From Escherichia phage EP01: 64,000 bases of DNA. Position numbers and translations under genes: made by a program. The notes beneath the pieces were generated by a model that was not told where the DNA came from, ran no database searches, and worked only from the letters and a program-made list of their open reading frames with translations. The DNA is taken from sequence record OM135583.1; one strand, given 5' to 3'. How positions within the stretch are numbered: position 1 is the stretch's first letter; the number at the start of each line of letters is the position of its first letter. Below, piece after piece: positions 18,393 to 29,648 of this stretch.

Positions 18393-18422
18393 ATTATAAC
18401 ACAACACGAGGGACTTGTAAAC
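18393..18422 (-). promoter_or_regulatory. T4-type early promoter (GTTTAC -35, TATAAT -10)
   Basis: - strand GTTTAC, 18-nt spacer, TATAAT, upstream of the alt.-3-position ORF. Confidence 0.6.
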
Positions 18423-20479
18423 TACATTTTGAACTTTTTAGACATTCCGTTGATGTTAATCAAAGAAGCCAAGATTTGAGAAACTTCGTTTTCCTCTTCT
18501 TTTGATTCTTCTACAAGGAATTGATTAAATCCAGCCATTGGACGAACTTCACCAGTTTCCATCAGGTGGTCGCCATCATATACCGATTCTTCTAATTGTT
18601 CAGAAGGAGGAACGATTGTGCCTTCGATTAGATACTTGTTATAAGCAGTTTCTTTCATCATGTACGTACTCACTTTATTAATCTTCAGCAAAATTCCACG
18701 TGGTAAAATAACTTCAGCTTCTGATGGAAATCCTGATAAATGACCCGGAACGATAACTTTGATTCGCTCAGCTCCTTTAATTACCATACCCACGCTAGTT
18801 TCAGCATCTTCATTCGCATAAGCAGAGTGACTGCCCATATGCATCAAATCTTCTGCGTCAACTGAACCTTCTCCTTCACCAGAAAATACTGCACCGGAAT
18901 CATCTAGAGCCATATAGTTTTTACCATACTCACCGAAGATATTTGGTTTAAGCGATGTTGATACGAAGTTCTTGAAATAGAACATTCTATTTTCAATATT
19001 ATGACGTAAAGTTTTAAAGGTAACTTCTTGTCCACGGTAAAGTGTAGTTCCTGGAGGAAGAACTGATCCTTTGGCAAAGGCAGAATCCATTGTCTCGATG
19101 TGTTTAATAGCTCGTTCCATATATTCTTCACGGGTAGAATCTGGTTTACCTAAAAGGAACGAGTTCATTTCAACATATGAATCTGCACAATAATCTTCAA
19201 TTACATCAGACTCAGCCTGAGTTAATCCTTTTGGGGGTACTTCAGTACTTGCATATTCATACGCTTGAGAAGCAGACTCATTAATCAATTTATAAATGCC
19301 ATTCATGACAAATTGAACAATAGCTACCTTTTCATCTGGCGTGGCTTTAGAACCTTTAACTAAATCATTGACGATTTTCTTAATAACATCAAAGCTATTA
19401 GAAATATTAATGTCAGCAAGATCGCTTAAAATTTTATCAGTTTTATAATCAAAAAATTCTTTATTCTTTAAATATTCTTGAGAACCTTGATATGTTATAT
19501 CGCTCTGTAACTTGATAGATGGATCACGTAAACGTGCATGAGCCAATGCAATATGATTTCGGAAGCTTTCTAGTTCATAATCATTAGATTTAAAACGAGA
19601 AGCACTTCTCATACCACCGATAGCTCCTTTGCTGAAGTTTGAACCAACCTGAATAACGCCAGAGTTCATTGGTCCTTCTGCTTTATATACTGGAACTTTA
19701 GATTCAAACTCTTGATATTTCTTAGCAGCGAAGCTATCACCCTGAAGTGAAGCATCGACAGTAGAATATTGAGCTTGTGCTGCTAATCGACGACTAATTT
19801 TAGTTTTCTGAATTACAGCTTGATCCGTGCGCTTATCATTTTCTAAAGCAATAGAAGCAGCAACAGCAACAGCTTTAGGAACAGCATTACCTGTTTTAAC
19901 GTCTACATAAACATCACCAACCTTTGATTCAACTTTTGTGAATAACTCAGTTGAAATAGGAGGTACACCTGGAATGTCTTCTAAATTGGCATTTTTACGG
20001 TAAACCATAATATATGCATATTTCTTATCATAGTCCCAGATTTCCTTTAAAAGAACATATCGACCTGCTCCTTTAGTACGCACTAAACGGTCGGCAATAA
20101 CTTGCATTTGACGAGCAGCGCCATTTGTTTTACTCTTTAATACGCGGAATAGGCATGCGTCAATTTTGTACTGTTTCATTGTTTGAAGAGCAGTATCAAA
20201 AACCGCATTAATGACACCAATTGGATTTCCACCCAAGTTTTTAAGTTTAACTAATGATAGTTTCTCGTTGACACCTATCATTACGATATGCATCATTTTA
20301 TCGCCTGGCTTAACGTTTTTATTTGTATCACCACCAGAGGTGTATGTACAAAATCTAAATCCAGGAAGCACGCTTTCTTCACCGGCTTGAATAGCAAAAA
20401 TTTGAGGTATTTTATGCTTAGGATTTAAGTTAACAACCGGCGCCGAAGCGCCGTCAAATAATTCTGTAATAAGTTCCAT
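18422..20479 (-). CDS. Alt-family ADP-ribosyltransferase paralogue
   Basis: 685 aa; N-terminal ~200 aa near-identical in pattern to the neighbouring alt; ART triad TLYRGQE / FVSTS / EAEVILPRG. Confidence 0.85.
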   Translation of the reverse strand: MELITELFDGASAPVVNLNPKHKIPQIFAIQAGEESVLPGFRFCTYTSGGDTNKNVKPGDKMMHIVMIGVNEKLSLVKLKNLGGNPIGVINAVFDTALQTMKQYKIDACLFRVLKSKTNGAARQMQVIADRLVRTKGAGRYVLLKEIWDYDKKYAYIMVYRKNANLEDIPGVPPISTELFTKVESKVGDVYVDVKTGNAVPKAVAVAASIALENDKRTDQAVIQKTKISRRLAAQAQYSTVDASLQGDSFAAKKYQEFESKVPVYKAEGPMNSGVIQVGSNFSKGAIGGMRSASRFKSNDYELESFRNHIALAHARLRDPSIKLQSDITYQGSQEYLKNKEFFDYKTDKILSDLADINISNSFDVIKKIVNDLVKGSKATPDEKVAIVQFVMNGIYKLINESASQAYEYASTEVPPKGLTQAESDVIEDYCADSYVEMNSFLLGKPDSTREEYMERAIKHIETMDSAFAKGSVLPPGTTLYRGQEVTFKTLRHNIENRMFYFKNFVSTSLKPNIFGEYGKNYMALDDSGAVFSGEGEGSVDAEDLMHMGSHSAYANEDAETSVGMVIKGAERIKVIVPGHLSGFPSEAEVILPRGILLKINKVSTYMMKETAYNKYLIEGTIVPPSEQLEESVYDGDHLMETGEVRPMAGFNQFLVEESKEEENEVSQILASLININGMSKKFKM

Positions 20480-20482
20480 GAT

Positions 20483-22579
20483 TTATCCTTGAACGAACTT
20501 GTAAGGCATGTTTGTAATATCTATGCAAGACGCAATAATTCCGAGAGATGATTCTGCTTTCTGTTTAACATTTGATGAAACAAATGATGCAAAGTCAACT
20601 CTGTCTTCTATTTCAATATCACCTGTCATTGCAACTACTTCACCGGTTTCCATTAGACGGTCACCGTCATAAATGACTGATTCGGTGAGTTCTTCCGTAG
20701 TCATAACTTCAGCTTGAATGAGTTTTGTGTTATTAGATGTTGTTCCGTCATTATTAGAAGCATCAGTTATTTTATTAACTTTGACCATCAATCCGCGTGG
20801 TAGAATTACTTCAGCTTCTGTTGCTATTCCGAGACTCCCTGGATATACAACATTAACTTTATGAGCTCCATCAATTGCCCATCCTATTTGAACTTTAACG
20901 TATTCAGGATTTTCTTTATACGCTCTTATTTCGTTCGGATTAATAGTTATTCCTTCTTCATTTTTATCAACTGTTAATTCATTACGAGCTTCTGGTTCTA
21001 AAAGACCGATACCAGCATGTGTAATTCCAAAACGTCCAAAAATGATAGGAGTTAAAGAAGTAGATACAAAATTTCTGAAATAGAACACTTTATTTTTAAC
21101 TAGTGCTTCGTATATAGGAGCAGTCATACTTTGAGCACGATAAACTGTAATGCCTTCTGGTATACGGTCACCATTTTCAAAAGCTGAATCTAAATTATTT
21201 ATCGCAGATTCAATTTCTTTTTCACTCATTACATCATATCGTTCTGGATTGTAGCGGCCTAAAAGAAGATTATTGATGTCAGTATATCCTGATCCACAAT
21301 ATTCTCTAATGCCGCGCTTTTGCGATGGAGTATATTTAGAACCATCACGTGCAATGGTAATATCAATCATTGGACCTGCACCAATTCCAGAAAAGCTGTA
21401 AATCATTCTTTTGAGGAATTTAGTTTTTGCTGCGTTCCAGGAATTTTTAGTTATTTCTTCCCAGACTTCATCTGGCTGTCCTTTACGGGTTTTATTATGT
21501 TTATCAAGCCAAGTATCTTTATATTCTTCAAAGAATTTATTAATAGCTGCTGCATACTTCTCTAAACATTTTATTGAAGTAGTTGGTTCATTTTTAATCG
21601 CATTAAGAATTACATCTTTAATTTTTTCAGAAACTTCATTAACCTCACTTTTTGAAAAGAATTTATAATCATAGTGAAGTTCATCTGCAGTTCCTTCGGC
21701 AATAATTTTTGCTGCTTTAGTTTTAGAAGCTAATGAATTAATTCCAAGTTTCATTTCTTCTGCTTCAGGAATTAAAGGAGCTGTAGCAGGTTTATTGAAA
21801 TTAGCTGCGGTAGATTCATACTTCTGAAATAATTCATTTTCAAATCTAGAAGATTCTAATGATTGACTTTGCGCAATTGCTCTACGGGAAATTTTAACTT
21901 TAACGATTACAGCTTGGTCAGAACGTTTATCATTTTCTTGCGCAATAGATGCTGCAATTGCCTCATTTTTAGTTACTTGGGCTCCAGTATCTTTATTGAT
22001 ATAAACATCGCCGACCTTCGATTCAACTTTAGTAAAGAGCTCGGTACTAATTTCCGGAACTCCTGGAATGTCTTCTAGTGATACATTTTTGCGATGTATA
22101 AGAATATATGCATACTTTTTATCGTAATCCCAGAGTTCCTTAAGAAGGACGTATCTGCCACCTGAACGACTACGGATAAGTCTATCAGCAATAACTTGAA
22201 TTTGTCGAGCTTGGCCAGCAGTTTTAGACTTAAGAATACGAAGCATGCAGGCATCAATTTTATACTGACGCATCGTTTGCATCGCAACAGTAAAAACTGA
22301 ATTGATGTAATTAATTGGGCTTGGACCGAGACCTTTCAATTTAGCAATTGAACCTTTAGCAGTTAATGTAAAAGGAACAATGTGCATCATTTTATCGCCC
22401 ATCTTTAGATCACGGTTAGTATCACCTCCAGATGTATAGGTACATAAACGAAAGCCTGGTTGTTCAATTGCGTCATCAACATGAACTGAAAAAATTTGCG
22501 GTATTTTCTTCTTTGGATTTAAGTTTGTAATCGGAAGAGTAGTATCTTCGTCAAATAATTCTGTAATGAGTTCCATCAT
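20483..22579 (-). CDS. alt: ADP-ribosyltransferase Alt (packaged, injected)
   Basis: 698 aa; ART triad TVYRAQS / FVSTS / EAEVILPRG; late promoter and SD upstream; position next to gene 30. Confidence 0.88.
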   Translation of the reverse strand: MMELITELFDEDTTLPITNLNPKKKIPQIFSVHVDDAIEQPGFRLCTYTSGGDTNRDLKMGDKMMHIVPFTLTAKGSIAKLKGLGPSPINYINSVFTVAMQTMRQYKIDACMLRILKSKTAGQARQIQVIADRLIRSRSGGRYVLLKELWDYDKKYAYILIHRKNVSLEDIPGVPEISTELFTKVESKVGDVYINKDTGAQVTKNEAIAASIAQENDKRSDQAVIVKVKISRRAIAQSQSLESSRFENELFQKYESTAANFNKPATAPLIPEAEEMKLGINSLASKTKAAKIIAEGTADELHYDYKFFSKSEVNEVSEKIKDVILNAIKNEPTTSIKCLEKYAAAINKFFEEYKDTWLDKHNKTRKGQPDEVWEEITKNSWNAAKTKFLKRMIYSFSGIGAGPMIDITIARDGSKYTPSQKRGIREYCGSGYTDINNLLLGRYNPERYDVMSEKEIESAINNLDSAFENGDRIPEGITVYRAQSMTAPIYEALVKNKVFYFRNFVSTSLTPIIFGRFGITHAGIGLLEPEARNELTVDKNEEGITINPNEIRAYKENPEYVKVQIGWAIDGAHKVNVVYPGSLGIATEAEVILPRGLMVKVNKITDASNNDGTTSNNTKLIQAEVMTTEELTESVIYDGDRLMETGEVVAMTGDIEIEDRVDFASFVSSNVKQKAESSLGIIASCIDITNMPYKFVQG

Positions 22580-22599
22580 ATCCTCTCTAGTGTTTATTC

Positions 22600-22607
22600 T
22601 ATTTATA
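22600..22607 (-). promoter_or_regulatory. late promoter TATAAATA (- strand) upstream of alt
   Basis: Reverse complement is an exact TATAAATA about 20 nt before the alt ATG. Confidence 0.55.
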
Positions 22608-22628
22608 AAATTAAAGGCCCGAAGGCCT

Positions 22629-22817
22629 TTAATAATCTAATGGTAAGAGAGTACGATATATTTCAAACTTTGGACCTTTTTCATAGGCATCAAATGTTTC
22701 TGTGAATTTATTATAAGCATATGCATCTACAAATTCGAGAATGACTTGTGATACAGAAGTAGAAACATCTCCACCTTCTTTTTGAGCAATGACAATTGTT
22801 TCTAAGTAAGCTTTCAT
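22629..22817 (-). CDS. hypothetical protein, 62 aa
   Basis: Small ORF overlapping the gene 30 stop by 4 nt. Confidence 0.5.
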   Translation of the reverse strand: MKAYLETIVIAQKEGGDVSTSVSQVILEFVDAYAYNKFTETFDAYEKGPKFEIYRTLLPLDY

Positions 22818-24277
22818 AGACCAGTTACCTCATGAAAATCACCAAATACATCCTCGAATGTATTAGCTTTAGTTTTATCTTCACGTAAACGAATCGCAAT
22901 CGGAAGAAATAATTTAACGTAATCAGTGCGGCCATCAGATTTTAACCAACCGTTGCATTCGCACTCTAGAATTTTTCCAATATAATAATTTTGGTTTTCC
23001 ATAATGCGAGTACGGTCAAGTTCATGTGATTTTACACCGGCTTTATCTTTTAAGCCTGAACCAGCATTTACTTTAATTTTTCCACATTCTGATTCAAGAA
23101 TAAATCCACCCGCTTTAGTAGGGTCTTTACGGTGAGGATAAATTCCTACAATTTTTAAATCAACATCAATTACTTCTTTAAATTTATAGAGATTTTTTGA
23201 ACGAGCATTTTCCCACAATCCATCGGTATTTTTGAGAATAATACCTTCAAGACCTTGGTCAATATATTTTTTATAAATTACCTTAGCTTCATCTAGGTTA
23301 TTTACTACCTGGTTTTCAATTAAAATTACTTTATCATATACTGATGTCATTTGTTCTAGTTTAGAAAAACGTACATCATATTTTAAACGAAACGCCGGAA
23401 GACCGTATATTTCTACCAACGGGACATAATCCCAGACCTGAAACTTCATGCATTGAGCTTCTTTTTCAGAAATGGTTCCTTTTAAGGATTTATTGGCGAT
23501 TCCATTAGAAGTAGTACGAGATTCCGCTACTTCGGCGAATTCATTAGCTTTACTAATTTCAGGATAAGCATCAAAAAGAAAATCTAGGCCTTCTGGTTCC
23601 TTTTTAACTTGCTCATGGTATACCAATTCACCATCGATTAACACACCTTCTGGATGAATCTGGCGGGCTTCAGCAGTCATTTTGATTAACTCTTCCTTAA
23701 GAAGATCTAATCCTAGATATTCATTACCAGCTCGTGATAAAAGACGAACATCATCTAATTCATCTCCTCGGACTTCAGCAAAACACCGAGCTCCATCTGC
23801 TTTTAACTGCGCAAAAGCTGGAAACTTGATATTCTTACTAATGCCTTTTTCATCATAAGAACTTGCCAGCATTTGAGGTTGTTCAGGAATTAAACCTGGC
23901 CAAACTTTGTTTGCAATAGATACTGAAGCACCGCATTCAAGGTCTCGCATCATCACTCGACGTAAAACTTCAACATCATCCTTTTTACCATCAGTGATAT
24001 ATCCAGTTAATTCCTCAATTGCTGCATTTCCAGTCAATTTCCGAGTAGCTAACGTGAATTCAATGAAGTCAAGCATATCGGTAATAGTCAGCATTCCAAA
24101 ACTCTGGGTAGCAATACCAGGTTTAGGCCATTTCTTGATATAATACTGTAACCCACGAGAATAAGTCAGACGATATACTCGTTTAAGCAATTCATTATTT
24201 TTATTCTTTTCAAGAATTGCTTGCTTCTGTTTAGTTGATCCAATAGATGCTATTTCATTCAGAATTTTAAGAATCAT
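22814..24277 (-). CDS. 30: ATP-dependent DNA ligase gp30
   Basis: 487 aa; adenylation motif KADGAR; recognised T4 ligase N-terminus. Confidence 0.95.
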   Translation of the reverse strand: MILKILNEIASIGSTKQKQAILEKNKNNELLKRVYRLTYSRGLQYYIKKWPKPGIATQSFGMLTITDMLDFIEFTLATRKLTGNAAIEELTGYITDGKKDDVEVLRRVMMRDLECGASVSIANKVWPGLIPEQPQMLASSYDEKGISKNIKFPAFAQLKADGARCFAEVRGDELDDVRLLSRAGNEYLGLDLLKEELIKMTAEARQIHPEGVLIDGELVYHEQVKKEPEGLDFLFDAYPEISKANEFAEVAESRTTSNGIANKSLKGTISEKEAQCMKFQVWDYVPLVEIYGLPAFRLKYDVRFSKLEQMTSVYDKVILIENQVVNNLDEAKVIYKKYIDQGLEGIILKNTDGLWENARSKNLYKFKEVIDVDLKIVGIYPHRKDPTKAGGFILESECGKIKVNAGSGLKDKAGVKSHELDRTRIMENQNYYIGKILECECNGWLKSDGRTDYVKLFLPIAIRLREDKTKANTFEDVFGDFHEVTGL

Positions 24278-24543
24278 TGTTCATCCTTCAGAGTTTGATT
24301 TACATCTCTATTATAAATCAATTCATCATTAAGCTCAGGCAAAGACTTATGATATGTCGTTCTAACTTTATTTCCTTGCATCCAGTGCTTGACGTAAATG
24401 AAACCTTGCTCTACACATTTTTTAAAAATTCGTTCATCCTTTTGAGCACGGAACTCTGGATTGCATCTAAAAAATTGATTTACGTGACCATAATCACGTG
24501 TAGTATTACCTTCATTTTCATAAATAGTATGAACAACAAACAT
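24274..24543 (-). CDS. hypothetical protein, 89 aa (30.x region)
   Basis: ORF, translationally coupled. Confidence 0.55.
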   Translation of the reverse strand: MFVVHTIYENEGNTTRDYGHVNQFFRCNPEFRAQKDERIFKKCVEQGFIYVKHWMQGNKVRTTYHKSLPELNDELIYNRDVNQTLKDEQ

Positions 24544-25382
24544 TAGAATGCTCCTTGAAAAATATTATCACCACTAGTAGGTCTATTATACAAATACTCT
24601 ATGCCACCAGGTTTAATATAGTTCCATGTCTGAAACGGATGTGTCTGATATGGATGATATAGATGATTATAAGGATTTAATCCAGGCGTTCTCCAGGTAG
24701 TGTTCCAAGGAAAAGAATCGTTTTTAACCATCTTCTCAATTAAATCTTTTATAGCTTTTTCACTATCAAAACTTTCTTTATTTTCCTTCGGCGAAAAAAG
24801 CTTATTTTCTACATCATTCCATGTATAAACTCGCTGCGCAGTTTTTGGAATATTGTCACGCTCTCCTCGAGCCATCCAATAAACTGGAACATTTAATATT
24901 TCACTCGCATGATCGCAGTGATGAGCGAGATCGTCAATATAACAAATTACGTTATATTTCTCTTTTGCCTTTTTGAACAGCTCTTCTTTTGAAGAATCAT
25001 GACCACACATCATTACTTCTGAGAAGGCACCAGGAAAAAGAGCGTTCAAATTAAATTGACGATTCAACAGAGCGTCAATAGAATCACCCAATGCTGTAAC
25101 AGCTACAAAATTATAATCTTCTTTTAATTTGTTAATTACACACAGGGCATCTTTATACGGAGACAAGTAACGAATAAAATCTGAACGATTGTATTTTTCA
25201 ATTAACTTGACGCCAAGTTCTTCGTCACAATTAAAGAGTTTACCTGGAGAAATAAATTTCTCATCTTGGATCATTTTTAAAATATGTTCTAATGGAAGAT
25301 TATATTTCTGAGCAAAATAAGGAAGGCCTGATTGCCAGCTTAAACATACTCCATCAATATCAGTCAAAATAGTTGGCTTCAT
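24543..25382 (-). CDS. HAD-like hydrolase-domain protein (30.x region)
   Basis: 279 aa; N-terminal DxDG motif ILTDIDGV. Confidence 0.6.
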   Translation of the reverse strand: MKPTILTDIDGVCLSWQSGLPYFAQKYNLPLEHILKMIQDEKFISPGKLFNCDEELGVKLIEKYNRSDFIRYLSPYKDALCVINKLKEDYNFVAVTALGDSIDALLNRQFNLNALFPGAFSEVMMCGHDSSKEELFKKAKEKYNVICYIDDLAHHCDHASEILNVPVYWMARGERDNIPKTAQRVYTWNDVENKLFSPKENKESFDSEKAIKDLIEKMVKNDSFPWNTTWRTPGLNPYNHLYHPYQTHPFQTWNYIKPGGIEYLYNRPTSGDNIFQGAF

Positions 25383-25843
25383 AGAGAGTCTCTTAATAGG
25401 TTTAACACATCAATAAATTCAGCTTCGGTTAGTATTGTATCATCTTTTGTTAGACCATTAGCCATGCTGTGCTTCAAAACTTTTCCTTTCGAGGCTTGTA
25501 ATGCATCACGAAAACCCCTGTTTTGGATCGCTGCTTCAAAATATGCATTTGTGTATAATTCTTTCCATGCTTCGGAATATCTTGAAAACGGAGTTCCAAG
25601 CCAGAACAACGTGCCACGGTCCTGAGCTCTAGCATAAGACCTTCCAGCTTGTTGGGCGGCAAGCCCGGATAACCCAAATATACGTCTTTGCTGTTCAACA
25701 TTTTTCACCTTACATCCTTGGAGGAATCCTTCGAGACCTCCAAATTGGATACCATCCATAACGAAAGGCCATTGGGCGAAATTGCTTAATGCACATGATG
25801 GCCATCTAAAATTGCTTCTTATCTCTAGCTCAGACATTTTCAA
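25379..25843 (-). CDS. NADAR / YbiA-like (DUF1768) protein (30.x region)
   Basis: 154 aa; motifs LSNFAQWP and EGFLQGCK resemble the YbiA/NADAR family from memory; unverified. Confidence 0.5.
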   Translation of the reverse strand: MKMSELEIRSNFRWPSCALSNFAQWPFVMDGIQFGGLEGFLQGCKVKNVEQQRRIFGLSGLAAQQAGRSYARAQDRGTLFWLGTPFSRYSEAWKELYTNAYFEAAIQNRGFRDALQASKGKVLKHSMANGLTKDDTILTEAEFIDVLNLLRDSL

Positions 25844-26036
25844 TACTTATAATTTCAACATCAGCCCAATGACCATAGCAAGGAAGACGAAATTCAACTG
25901 GCCAGTTAGGGTCCTTTTCTAATATAATAGACTGAACTTGTGGCTCTTCATATTCATCGGTATACGGACCTTTATACGTTACTTTATATGTGACCTTAAT
26001 GTACTGAATTCCAAAAATCTTATTAATTATATTCAT
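25830..26036 (-). CDS. hypothetical protein, 68 aa
   Basis: ORF in 30.x early block. Confidence 0.5.
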   Translation of the reverse strand: MNIINKIFGIQYIKVTYKVTYKGPYTDEYEEPQVQSIILEKDPNWPVEFRLPCYGHWADVEIISIENV

Positions 26037-26230
26037 ACTAATTCCTTTAATCCGTAAATAGGAGATAATTCATCACCCATACGAAGGTCTTCATTTCCAT
26101 CTACCCAAGAAACAATATAAGCTTCTTTTATTTGAACGTCTCTCCATTTAAATGCAGGCAAAACCTTAGAAATTAATCCAGGTATACCGACTCCCTTTAA
26201 TTCAACAGTTTGACCTAAAAAGAATTTCAT
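26033..26230 (-). CDS. hypothetical protein, 65 aa
   Basis: ORF in 30.x early block. Confidence 0.5.
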   Translation of the reverse strand: MKFFLGQTVELKGVGIPGLISKVLPAFKWRDVQIKEAYIVSWVDGNEDLRMGDELSPIYGLKELV

Positions 26231-26517
26231 TAGAACCTCATCTGAAAACCGTGCGATTTAACATTACCGCCGTCAATATCAGAAATGTTAATTTCACGCG
26301 CAATTGAAGGGTCAATGTCAATTTCACGATTGAGTTTAGCGATAGCTAGAGTATCACGCCCATTTACAGTACGGAACTCTAAAGGGCAGACTGTATTAAC
26401 ATAGTTTTTAATCGATTCACTGGTAGGCTGCAAATGAGCAGGAAGGTCTTTAGGTGCCTTAGAGAAAACCACTTCACAGAAATTTTTGCGGGTATCAAAA
26501 TAAGTAGTCATAAACAT
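26230..26517 (-). CDS. hypothetical protein, 95 aa
   Basis: ATG at 26517 with GAGGA SD; the track's longer start would cover the upstream hairpin. Confidence 0.55.
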   Translation of the reverse strand: MFMTTYFDTRKNFCEVVFSKAPKDLPAHLQPTSESIKNYVNTVCPLEFRTVNGRDTLAIAKLNREIDIDPSIAREINISDIDGGNVKSHGFQMRF

Positions 26518-26557
26518 AGTATTTTCCTCAGTAAGGGGCCGAAGCCCCTGTTTTATT

Positions 26558-26926
26558 TTAAATATCAAATTCGTTAAGAACTACATCAAAGATTGCTTCA
26601 AGATGCTCAGGTTTAGCTCTGTTACTCAGAATATGACGAATCCAAGTTTTAACCAGAAGCTTACGATTGACGCCATTCCAGCAAGGATGAGTCCCTAAAT
26701 CGCGTTGACGGAAATCATCATCTAATGCGATTTTGAAAGAAGAACCTTCTTTCGTGATTGAAACCGTGATGCCGCCATTTTCAAATCGCATATAAACGTA
26801 GTTAGGAGTCATATACTGTTCAATTTCGCATACTGATCCATTTTGATGTTTCCAAAGGCAGATAGTATCAATAGAACCTGCAATACCGTTAGAAACATAT
26901 TTACGTTCAAAGTTGATGTAGTTCAT
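26558..26926 (-). CDS. hypothetical protein, 122 aa
   Basis: ATG at 26926 with GGAG SD; track start is TTG. Confidence 0.55.
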   Translation of the reverse strand: MNYINFERKYVSNGIAGSIDTICLWKHQNGSVCEIEQYMTPNYVYMRFENGGITVSITKEGSSFKIALDDDFRQRDLGTHPCWNGVNRKLLVKTWIRHILSNRAKPEHLEAIFDVVLNEFDI

Positions 26927-26962
26927 TTTATTCTCCAAGGTGTTTAATTGCGGTACAGGTAT

Positions 26963-26991
26963 ATAATATCATATCCTGTACCAAAGTAAAC
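26963..26991 (-). promoter_or_regulatory. T4-type early promoter
   Basis: GTTTAC, 17-nt spacer, TATTAT on the - strand; -10 lies inside an 8-bp inverted repeat. Confidence 0.55.
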
Positions 26992-26993
26992 AA

Positions 26994-27326
26994 TTATTTT
27001 ACTACTTTCCAATGCTTCATGTCAAGTTTACCAACTTTTTTCATCTTCTCAATTAAGCGTTCGGCACGTTGGCGAGCTGTAACATAATACCATTCACCCA
27101 ATTCATTTTGTTCAATTTTTCCAACGATTACTGTATTCAATTCATAAATCCAACCAGTAAAGAAATTATGAACTTGAATTGTAAAGGTGAAATCTGTTCC
27201 CATACCTTCTGTTGTTTCTACTTCAATAATATCACCTTCAACTGCCATTAAGAACCACATAGTTTCGTTATATTCACCATTGAAACATTTAGCTTTAACC
27301 GCAGCGTTCAGATTAATCGTTTTCAT
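26994..27326 (-). CDS. hypothetical protein, 110 aa
   Basis: ORF behind an early promoter. Confidence 0.55.
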   Translation of the reverse strand: MKTINLNAAVKAKCFNGEYNETMWFLMAVEGDIIEVETTEGMGTDFTFTIQVHNFFTGWIYELNTVIVGKIEQNELGEWYYVTARQRAERLIEKMKKVGKLDMKHWKVVK

Positions 27327-27353
27327 TTTATTCTCCTTTGTTTGTGTAAGATA

Positions 27354-27383
27354 ATACTATCACAAAGGAACTATACTGTAAAC
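27354..27383 (-). promoter_or_regulatory. candidate early promoter
   Basis: GTTTAC -35 with a weaker -10 (TAGTAT), directly downstream of a terminator. Confidence 0.45.
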
Positions 27384-27404
27384 AACTTTGTGCAATCTTT
27401 GGAA

Positions 27405-27431
27405 AATAAAAAAGGACTCCCGAAGGAGTCC
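27405..27431 (-). terminator. rho-independent terminator (- strand)
   Basis: GGACUCC-UUCG-GGAGUCC hairpin followed by a U-run. Confidence 0.7.
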
Positions 27432-27436
27432 TTAAC

Positions 27437-27613
27437 TTATGCTTTCTGCTTACCAAAACGAGAAGCATCATCTCGAAGAACCGCACGTGCTCGGCGCATG
27501 ATCTTCTCAACAGTTTGATTGATACGAGAGTTCGACCCACGCTTGTAACCAGCGCGTTTAGAATCACCAACTTTCTTTTCAACTGCTTTCTTTGCTTTAG
27601 CTTGTTTTGCCAT
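27437..27613 (-). CDS. small basic protein, 58 aa (T4 30.9 position)
   Basis: Lys/Arg-rich ORF from ATG 27613; followed by a - strand terminator. Confidence 0.5.
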   Translation of the reverse strand: MAKQAKAKKAVEKKVGDSKRAGYKRGSNSRINQTVEKIMRRARAVLRDDASRFGKQKA

Positions 27614-27733
27614 TATAAATTCTCTTTTAAATGAAAATGCAGGACTTATTGGCATTGCCTGCGAAAGCCCTCAAAGGGGTACTTAGGTTTTGAATATTTA
27701 CCGACAGGATAACCATAAACCTCGTCAACATAA

Positions 27734-27982
27734 TTACTTCAGTGTTACCACAAAGTGACGAACTGCTTTTCGTGCAGCAGAAGCCAGAGGCTTAGCATAT
27801 TTAAGTTCATCTTTTTCCTGGAGCTCAGCAGCTAGTGCAGTTTGAGCAGGATTCAGATGTTTGAAATAACGCAGGATTTCAAGAGCTTCGGCTTCAACAT
27901 CAATAGATGCGCCATAGTTTTCGTGACCATTATTCCATGCGTTTCGTTGCAGTTCGAGAGCGTGTTGTAATTGTTTAATCAT
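27734..27982 (-). CDS. rIII: rIII lysis-inhibition accessory protein
   Basis: 82 aa, immediately downstream of gene 31 as in T4. Confidence 0.75.
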   Translation of the reverse strand: MIKQLQHALELQRNAWNNGHENYGASIDVEAEALEILRYFKHLNPAQTALAAELQEKDELKYAKPLASAARKAVRHFVVTLK

Positions 27983-28129
27983 TTAAAAATTCTCGTTAGA
28001 GATTAAAACTCGGTAGCCACGTTCTTCTGAATTTCATCTTCTTTCGACAGATCTCTCAGTTGTAGACTACCACATAGAATTGTTCGGTTAACTTATTATT
28101 CCGACACCCAATTCATATTATTATTTATA

Positions 28130-28465
28130 TCACTTATAAAGACACGGAATAGCTTTATAGTGACAGGTAACGAATTTTTGTTTAATTTCTTTTGGCTGCT
28201 TAAGACCCAGAGCTACAAAAGGATGCGGAACGTTTCGAATTTGACCAACTGGAAGAGAAGTCAAATCACCAACTTCACAGAAACCTTCAGGAACATCAGG
28301 ACCAACAGAGTGAACTACACACAGTTCAGGAACTTCACCTTGAACACGTTTACCGATGATAAGTCCTGATTCTGTGACTTCTTCATCACCGGCTTGCGCA
28401 GGTTCAGAAACTAAAATAACATATTCACCGACAGCATGAATTGGTAGCTGTTGTACTTCAGACAT
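28130..28465 (-). CDS. 31: co-chaperonin gp31 (GroES analogue)
   Basis: 111 aa, recognised gp31 sequence (MSEVQQLPI...AIPCLYK). Confidence 0.95.
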
Positions 28466-28521
28466 CGTTTTTCCTTTTTGTTAACAGATGAATTAATAAT
28501 AACAAATAATTCTTAAAGCAT

Positions 28522-28830
28522 TTATTTACCAATAAATTGAAGCAAATGCTCAACTTTCATACCATTAACGGAAATCAATTTGTCAATAGAAAAACCTCGC
28601 CATGCGCCGAGTTCAACATCAAATACTGGAATCATATCAGTAGATTCTTTCCGAGTAGATTCAGTCAATTTACCGGTTTGCATGGTTGGCATAAAGTCTG
28701 CATCACGAGTACCTTTCATAGTACGAATAGTACCATCAGACTTTTCAAAAACCACGTTTGAAATACCCATGGACAATTTAGTTTTCAAAATTTCACGAAT
28801 TGCTACTTTTTGTTCAGTCGTCAGTTTCAT
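28522..28830 (-). CDS. hypothetical protein (31.1 position)
   Basis: 102-aa ORF. Confidence 0.55.
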   Translation of the reverse strand: MKLTTEQKVAIREILKTKLSMGISNVVFEKSDGTIRTMKGTRDADFMPTMQTGKLTESTRKESTDMIPVFDVELGAWRGFSIDKLISVNGMKVEHLLQFIGK

Positions 28831-29067
28831 TTATTTACCTATCACAGTTTTAATATGGGTTGTTCCACGTTCTTTAAGTGTGGAAAGCAGTTTTTTGCAT
28901 TTTTCTAAATCAGATTTCCAACTATATGGATTATCAATACAAACCCAGTTTGACTTATAATACTGCTTCCATTTAGAGAAAAAATATTTCTTATACTCTA
29001 CAGCAAATGAAATGTTCTCATTAGAATAAGAACTAATTGCTGTGAGTTGTACCAAACGAAATTTCAT
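28831..29067 (-). CDS. hypothetical protein (31.2 position)
   Basis: 78-aa ORF. Confidence 0.5.
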   Translation of the reverse strand: MKFRLVQLTAISSYSNENISFAVEYKKYFFSKWKQYYKSNWVCIDNPYSWKSDLEKCKKLLSTLKERGTTHIKTVIGK

Positions 29068-29648
29068 TATTCACCGCAGAATTCGTTGATATTTTCCCAG
29101 TTTAACTTATTCAAGTTTTTCTTAGGAACATTAAACACTTCAATACCTGCATTTCGCAGAATATCATCCCAGCCAGGTTTATTTTTATCGTATGTTTCGC
29201 AATAAACCAGCTTTTTAATACCAGATTGAGCTATCGCTTTTGCACAATCTGGGCAAGGAGAAAGTGTTACATACATAGTAGCACCTTCAATTGAAGAACC
29301 GTTTCGTGCAGCAAACAAAATCGCATTTAGTTCAGCATGAATTTCATTTTTAGACGACCATTCAGAGTGAGCGCTGCGGTGTTCTTTCGCCAAAACAAAA
29401 CGATCAGTTGAACCAAATGATGCACATTCGGGCTTATGACCTTGAATGATAGTTTGTTTAGGCTTATTCAGCAACCAACCTTGCTCGGCAGCATAATCGC
29501 AGCAATTCACACCACCTGCCGGAGAACCGTTATATCCGGTAGAAATAATACGTCCATTCTTTTCAATTACTGCTCCTACCTTCCAGGAGCAACATTTGGA
29601 TTCTTGTGATACTAAATATGCAATTTGAAGTACTGTACTCGCTTTCAT
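29067..29648 (-). CDS. cd: dCMP deaminase
   Basis: 193 aa; zinc motifs HAELNAI and PCPDCAKAI. Confidence 0.92.
   Translation of the reverse strand: MKASTVLQIAYLVSQESKCCSWKVGAVIEKNGRIISTGYNGSPAGGVNCCDYAAEQGWLLNKPKQTIIQGHKPECASFGSTDRFVLAKEHRSAHSEWSSKNEIHAELNAILFAARNGSSIEGATMYVTLSPCPDCAKAIAQSGIKKLVYCETYDKNKPGWDDILRNAGIEVFNVPKKNLNKLNWENINEFCGE

Follow-up and report, generated by a model that had tools for sequence, protein, structure and literature searches.

A phage-type NADAR encoded by gene 30.3 (adfN) of Escherichia phage EP01, predicted to counter DarTG1

The DNA under study was a 64,000-nt stretch of Escherichia phage EP01 (record OM135583.1), here called the window, and the DNA surrounding gene 30.3 was that of a Tequatrovirus (T4-like) genome. 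The 3 kb around the open reading frame (ORF) had matches in 737 phage records, with 99% identity to that of Escherichia phage vB_EcoM_JE01, and the gene order 30.4-30.3-30.2-30.1-ligase-alt.1-alt was the same as in T4. The minus-strand ORF 25379..25843 of the preliminary description, with 154 aa counted from a TTG codon, was present, but an ATG at 25837 is the likelier start. Because gene 30.3 is annotated in the T4 reference record as 459 nt (152 aa) from an ATG, and the product opens with MSELEIRS in close homologs, the true adfN coding sequence is most likely that given in Table 1. The ATG of adfN overlaps the stop codon of 30.4 (ATGTCTGA), and its own stop codon overlaps the ATG of 30.2 (ATGA). 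The motifs LSNFAQWP and EGFLQGCK, from which a NADAR/YbiA-like protein had been proposed, were found at residues 17-24 and 36-43 in ATG numbering.

Table 1. Features of the adfN locus of phage EP01 (positions in the window)
Feature	Position	Strand	Basis
adfN/gene 30.3 coding sequence, 152 aa + stop; predicted phage-type NADAR ADP-ribosylglycohydrolase	25379..25837	-	
Two added codons, TTG AAA, in the earlier ORF call; probably untranslated	25838..25843	-	T4 ATG start; MSELEIRS homologs
Gene 30.4, upstream neighbour, stop overlapping adfN start	25830..26036	-	phrog_2042 E=5e-33; T4 annotation
Catalytic Glu36 codon GAA (E38 in TTG numbering)	25730..25732	-	Invariant in both homolog alignments; aligns with YbiA Glu
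Catalytic Lys43 codon AAG	25709..25711	-	Invariant in one homolog alignment, at least 90% in another; aligns with YbiA Lys
His123 codon CAC, LKHS, last beta-strand	25469..25471	-	Invariant in one homolog alignment, at least 90% in another; model strand 120-124
C-terminal alpha-helix, residues 138-152, intact	25382..25426	-	Model helix 138-151; C-terminus identical to T4
Gene 30.2, predicted HAD fold, 5'(3')-deoxyribonucleotidase-like; context, role in the mechanism not implied	24543..25382	-	

The whole set of genes lies on the minus strand, so transcription runs from 30.3 towards 30.2, 30.1, ligase and alt, which places 30.3 upstream of alt and not downstream of it as had been stated. The presence of Alt ADP-ribosyltransferases in the same region was confirmed, with two Alt-type genes at 18422..20479 and 20483..22579 (minus strand). 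These tandem paralogs were both full-length (685 and 698 aa; PF03496 E=7e-20 and 1.6e-37), whereas in T4 an old duplication has left, beside a single alt, the short remnants alt.-1 and alt.-2. The alt.1 homolog (22629..22817, minus strand, 62 aa) matched Pfam PF24647, 'Phage blade protein', with E=1.9e-29. The T4 genes adfA (61.2) and adfM (tk.4) fall outside the T4 region that matches the window. In positions 22500..29500, the number of promoter-like sites (22) was not in excess of that in shuffled sequences (24.2 +/- 5.4), and 7 terminator-like sites were found compared with 3.8 +/- 1.9 in shuffles. A strong intrinsic-terminator-like hairpin (9 bp, GGACTCC/GGAGTCC, then a T-run) was located at 27433..27412 (minus strand), downstream of a 30.9-like ORF, and a promoter-like site at 27382..27354 comes after it; together they possibly mark a transcription unit boundary upstream of 30.8-30.3. 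The scan was uninformative on timing, and therefore the 'early' label of 30.3 rests on the literature, in which the NADARs of T4-like phages are early genes co-expressed with ADP-ribosyltransferases (ARTs) (Iyer et al., 2022, PMC9503650).

Assignment of the 30.3 product to the NADAR family was supported by its PF08010 membership, orthology to T4 gp30.3, fold and conserved Glu/Lys pair. The product matched the full length of Pfam PF08010, 'Bacteriophage protein GP30.3' (Phage_30_3) (E=6e-69; 230.6 bits against a cut-off of 36; positions 1-138 of 138), but the NADAR model PF08719 gave no match at E<=0.1. The phage NADAR branch owns a separate Pfam model, PF08010; PF08719 was matched by 15 of 80 gp30.3-type relatives, and E. 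coli YbiA cross-matched PF08010 with E=0.004. The product also belongs to phrog_652. By tblastn, 1,510 phage records contained homologs of 30.3 (phages of Escherichia, Klebsiella, Aeromonas, Acinetobacter, Vibrio and others), and when 1.84 billion cluster representatives were searched exhaustively with HMMER, 722 relatives were obtained at E<=1e-3. The ORF was judged not to be a chance frame because of the full-profile PF08010 match and the tblastn records.

NCBIfam and PADLOC searches gave no match for the 30.3 product, and PADLOC gave none for the downstream neighbour. A phmmer search of the product against PDB sequences returned nothing at E<=10, and the family profile matched YbiA alone in the PDB, with a marginal E=0.43. 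Because of these two PDB results, sequence-only methods are insufficient for the NADAR link, and structure or profile-profile methods are needed. The predicted structure had the NADAR fold, a helical core with small beta-hairpin flanks. The catalytic motif E-x2-Q-x3-K was conserved, E36 and K43 aligned with the Glu and Lys of YbiA, and hhalign set H123 within the YbiA vEHtE motif. A His here is the mark of phage NADARs; YbiA-family members carry Glu instead, and DarG1-type proteins Asp (PMC11125620; PMC12945103).

The closest characterized protein was T4 gp30.3, which has been placed in the 'phage NADAR' branch (PMC11125620; PMC12945103). The determinant of T2 and T4 resistance to DarTG1 was located in the 3' portion of 30.3, a gene then renamed adfN, for 'anti-DarT factor NADAR' (Johannesman et al., Nat Commun 2025, PMC11825919). 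In that study, T4 and T2 no longer formed plaques on DarTG1 hosts after adfN deletion, and expression of adfN rescued RB69; T4 AdfN is both necessary and sufficient against DarTG1. The E36A and K43A forms of T4 AdfN were impaired, and the protein stripped ADP-ribose from DarT1-modified DNA in vitro, did not bind DarT1 and did not counter DarTG2 (PMC11825919). RB69 30.3 carries a 1-nt insertion that removes the last 15 residues (the terminal helix), because of which RB69 is DarTG1-sensitive, and C-terminal truncation lowers AdfN activity (PMC11825919). In agreement with this, adfN insertions were lost on DarTG1 only in an independent transposon screen (preprint 10.1101/2025.11.20.689424). On DNA in vitro, T4 gp30.3 hydrolysed guanine-ADPr and not thymidine-ADPr; the T4 NADAR also cleaved RNA G-ADPr, less efficiently than the E. 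coli C7 NADAR (PMC11833690). AdfN(T4) failed against DarT1 in uninfected cells, and it barely helped the non-T-even phages T5 and Bas25, which suggests that it needs a T-even factor. Because of these two observations, the published AdfN mechanism is incomplete.

The EP01 product was compared with other NADARs. DarG1 of DarTG1 (a BC4488-type NADAR, e.g. Geobacter lovleyi 8bat) is encoded beside DarT, whereas the EP01 gene has no neighbouring toxin gene. No DarT1 toxin gene adjoined adfN, whose neighbours were 30.4 and the HAD-like 30.2, and EP01 adfN is therefore an orphan. DarG1 has Asp at the distinguishing position and extra DNA-binding elements at its N-terminus, which make up an electropositive channel, whereas EP01 AdfN has His123 and consists of the 152-aa core only (PMC12945103). 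AdfN resembles DarG1 in fold and chemistry but did not come out as a member of the DarG1 family, and T4 AdfN could not replace DarG1 in uninfected cells. E. coli YbiA (PF08719, PDB 2b3w) was 19% identical to EP01 AdfN. This N-glycosidase has a housekeeping role in the host, is encoded in an operon under LexA control and carries Glu as the distinguishing residue. AdfN(Bas32) and AdfN(Bas60), from T5-like and Vequintavirinae phages, are likewise phage orphan NADARs with anti-DarTG1 activity and specificity for guanine adducts. However, they fall into other branches of the NADAR family, were independently acquired and, unlike the gp30.3 type, are active without T-even infection.

Among the gp30.3-type relatives (P0023-P0165), fusions to KptA/Tpt1 RNA 2'-phosphotransferase, SLOG/YpsA, NT5C, ASCH and HD domains were observed. 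Four relatives of about 290 aa (P0023, P0025, P0028 and P0054) had two stretches that matched the query and are possibly tandem NADARs. The fusions and tandems hint that in other lineages these domains do more than counter DarT1. In Aeromonas phage UP87 (Biquartavirus), a gp30.3-type NADAR gene (L003, 4001..4450) was found inside a tRNA cluster, between tRNA-Met and tRNA-Arg, a setting very unlike that of the T4 gene.

The EP01 product was identical to T4 AdfN (NP_049816) at 147 of 152 residues (97%) and equal to it in length. The two have in common the overlaps with 30.4 and 30.2, the gene order, E36, K43 and H123, and an intact C-terminal helix. The five substitutions relative to T4 (V82T, P89E, K106R, I125M and S127N) were at no catalytic or invariant position, and the last 28 residues were identical. 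There were 27 nucleotide differences from T4, and in the 30.3 frame 19 of these were synonymous and 8 non-synonymous, a split that indicates purifying selection on 30.3. Owing to its full length, T4-identical C-terminus, substitutions off the conserved columns and apparent purifying selection, the EP01 allele is predicted with high confidence to be a functional AdfN. That it might instead be a decayed copy, non-functional like that of RB69, would fit with the RB69 frameshift and with the truncated or chimeric 30.3 products in databases. However, every invariant residue was kept in a full-length ORF with the T4 C-terminus, and the substitution pattern was that of purifying selection, so that decay of this allele is extremely improbable. 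The tblastn match to RB69 stopped at residue 137. In T4-like phage clusters P0008, P0013, P0015, P0016 and P0022, truncated or chimeric 30.3 was observed, in some cases with pieces of PF11097, PF06919 and PF06019, and in some phage records the 30.3 match was limited to residues 1-144. Taken together, these cases point to repeated disruption of adfN in nature, of which RB69 is one example. The out-of-frame ORF 30.3' (25474..25701, minus strand, 75 aa), annotated in T4 as 'internal translation' (NP_049817), was open in EP01. Its product was 81% identical to that of T4, compared with 97% for 30.3. The differences from T4 comprised 2 synonymous and 16 non-synonymous substitutions when read in the 30.3' frame, compared with 19 and 8, respectively, when read as 30.3, and therefore 30.3' showed no sign of selection as a protein and was rejected as a selected coding frame.

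The substrate of the enzyme could also be other than DNA. Phage NADARs were proposed from genomic context by Iyer et al. (2022, PMC9503650) to act on soluble derivatives of ADP-ribose or on signals derived from NAD, produced in host immunity or RNA repair; a YbiA-like riboflavin-pathway N-glycoside could be the substrate as well, and in either case the activity on DNA would be a side activity. Such a role would agree with the fusion of relatives to KptA/Tpt1, SLOG and NT5C, which handle nucleotide or ADPr derivatives, with the translational coupling to an NT5C-like HAD phosphatase, and with the comparatively weak activity of the T4 NADAR on RNA and its failure as an antitoxin in uninfected cells. 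However, deletion of adfN abolished plaquing of T4 and T2 specifically on DarTG1 hosts, transposon insertions were lost only there, catalytic mutants were impaired, DarT1-modified DNA was cleared of ADPr in vitro, and no soluble substrate has been demonstrated in the literature for the phage branch. We consider a soluble main substrate unlikely. The preliminary description also raised the possibility that the protein tunes or reverses the phage's own ADP-ribosylation, by the two Alt paralogs or ModA/ModB, and adfN does share a minus-strand gene block with two Alt genes. This idea was disfavoured by the reported NADAR assays, all of which were on nucleic-acid base adducts (guanine, in some cases also cytidine, and never thymidine), whereas Alt-type enzymes modify protein, namely RNA polymerase (T4 annotation). 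Moreover, NADAR genes of divergent phages lie in tRNA clusters or beside helicase and exonuclease genes with no adjoining ART, and the literature reports no phenotype on hosts without DarTG1; a main role in the phage's own ADP-ribosylation is thus very improbable. The DarTG1 genetics argue against both of these roles as the main function.

The EP01 gene is the ortholog of T4 30.3/adfN and very likely encodes a guanine-ADP-ribose glycohydrolase that defeats DarTG1. The earlier proposal that a phage NADAR could reverse DarT-like ADP-ribosylation was supported by the 97% identity to T4 AdfN, whose anti-DarTG1 role rests on published experiments. When a DarTG1 host is infected, DarT1 would ADP-ribosylate guanine in the phage DNA and replication would be blocked. 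With Glu36, Lys43 and His123 (the last specific to phage NADARs), AdfN would then hydrolyse the guanine-ADP-ribose bond, and removal of ADP-ribose would restore replicable phage DNA. AdfN would thus be a minimal, core-only NADAR, an 'orphan antitoxin' that is enzymatically similar to DarG1 but does not bind the toxin. Judged from its sequence, we infer that the 97%-identical EP01 allele acts like T4 AdfN in its own phage.

The neighbouring gene 30.2 had been described as a HAD-like hydrolase, and the HAD fold of its product was upheld by motifs, a structural model and Foldseek. EP01 gp30.2 was 97% identical to T4 gp30.2. Across 37 homologs, the HAD motif residues D8, D10, K132, D150 and D151 were invariant and T96 was nearly so, while a Pfam search of gp30.2 gave no match. 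The model had pLDDT >90 for residues 1-195, and its tail was disordered, starting near residue 226. Foldseek against the PDB gave 104 matches at E<=1e-3, and all 50 of the 50 matches listed had the HAD fold; among these, the best target-normalised TM-scores were those of 5'(3')-deoxyribonucleotidases (3bwv, 0.71; 4yih, 0.67; 2i7d, 0.65). The disordered tail of about 55-80 residues was rich in Pro, Trp, Tyr and His, and it was missing in the homologs of about 200-220 aa from Acinetobacter and Klebsiella phages.

Cooperation of gp30.2 with AdfN, either as the extra T-even protein required by AdfN(T4) to be fully active or in a second step on the released ADP-ribose or nucleotide product, is quite unlikely. 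Several observations were in its favour: the ATGA overlap was conserved, and a gp30.2-family gene was found within 4 kb of the NADAR gene at 19 of 86 divergent loci (22%), and in 18 of these cases it closely followed the NADAR gene in the same orientation. In Acinetobacter phage KARL-1 a gene for the gp30.2 N-domain lay right beside that for the NADAR, and in Klebsiella Slopekvirus it was two genes away. Vibrio phage VH7D had an unrelated Pfam NT5C gene that overlapped its NADAR gene, and one gp30.3-type relative was an NT5C-NADAR fusion. However, a gp30.2-family neighbour was absent at 78% of the 86 loci. The frequency of 19 in 86, together with absence in RB49, Aeromonas UP87 and Ochrobactrum ORM_20, ruled out 30.2 as an obligate NADAR partner. 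Among the 165 collected proteins, no gp30.3-type NADAR was fused to gp30.2-, gp30.1- or gp30.4-like sequence, and the T4 transposon screen on DarTG1 named adfN and never 30.2 (preprint 10.1101/2025.11.20.689424).

The function of this gene is already published for T4 and the anti-DarTG1 role is not new; current understanding is unchanged by EP01 adfN, and the use of the result is in annotation. The label 'hypothetical protein', which the gene carries in most deposited genomes, can be replaced by AdfN/NADAR DNA ADP-ribosylglycohydrolase, and EP01 is predicted to be DarTG1-resistant. AdfN is a case of a lytic phage with an 'orphan antitoxin' enzyme that undoes the work of a DNA-modifying immune toxin. 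The presence and integrity of adfN predict growth of T4-like phages on DarTG1 E. coli, as illustrated by DarTG1-sensitive RB69 with its 15-residue truncation, and this bears on host-range prediction and phage therapy.
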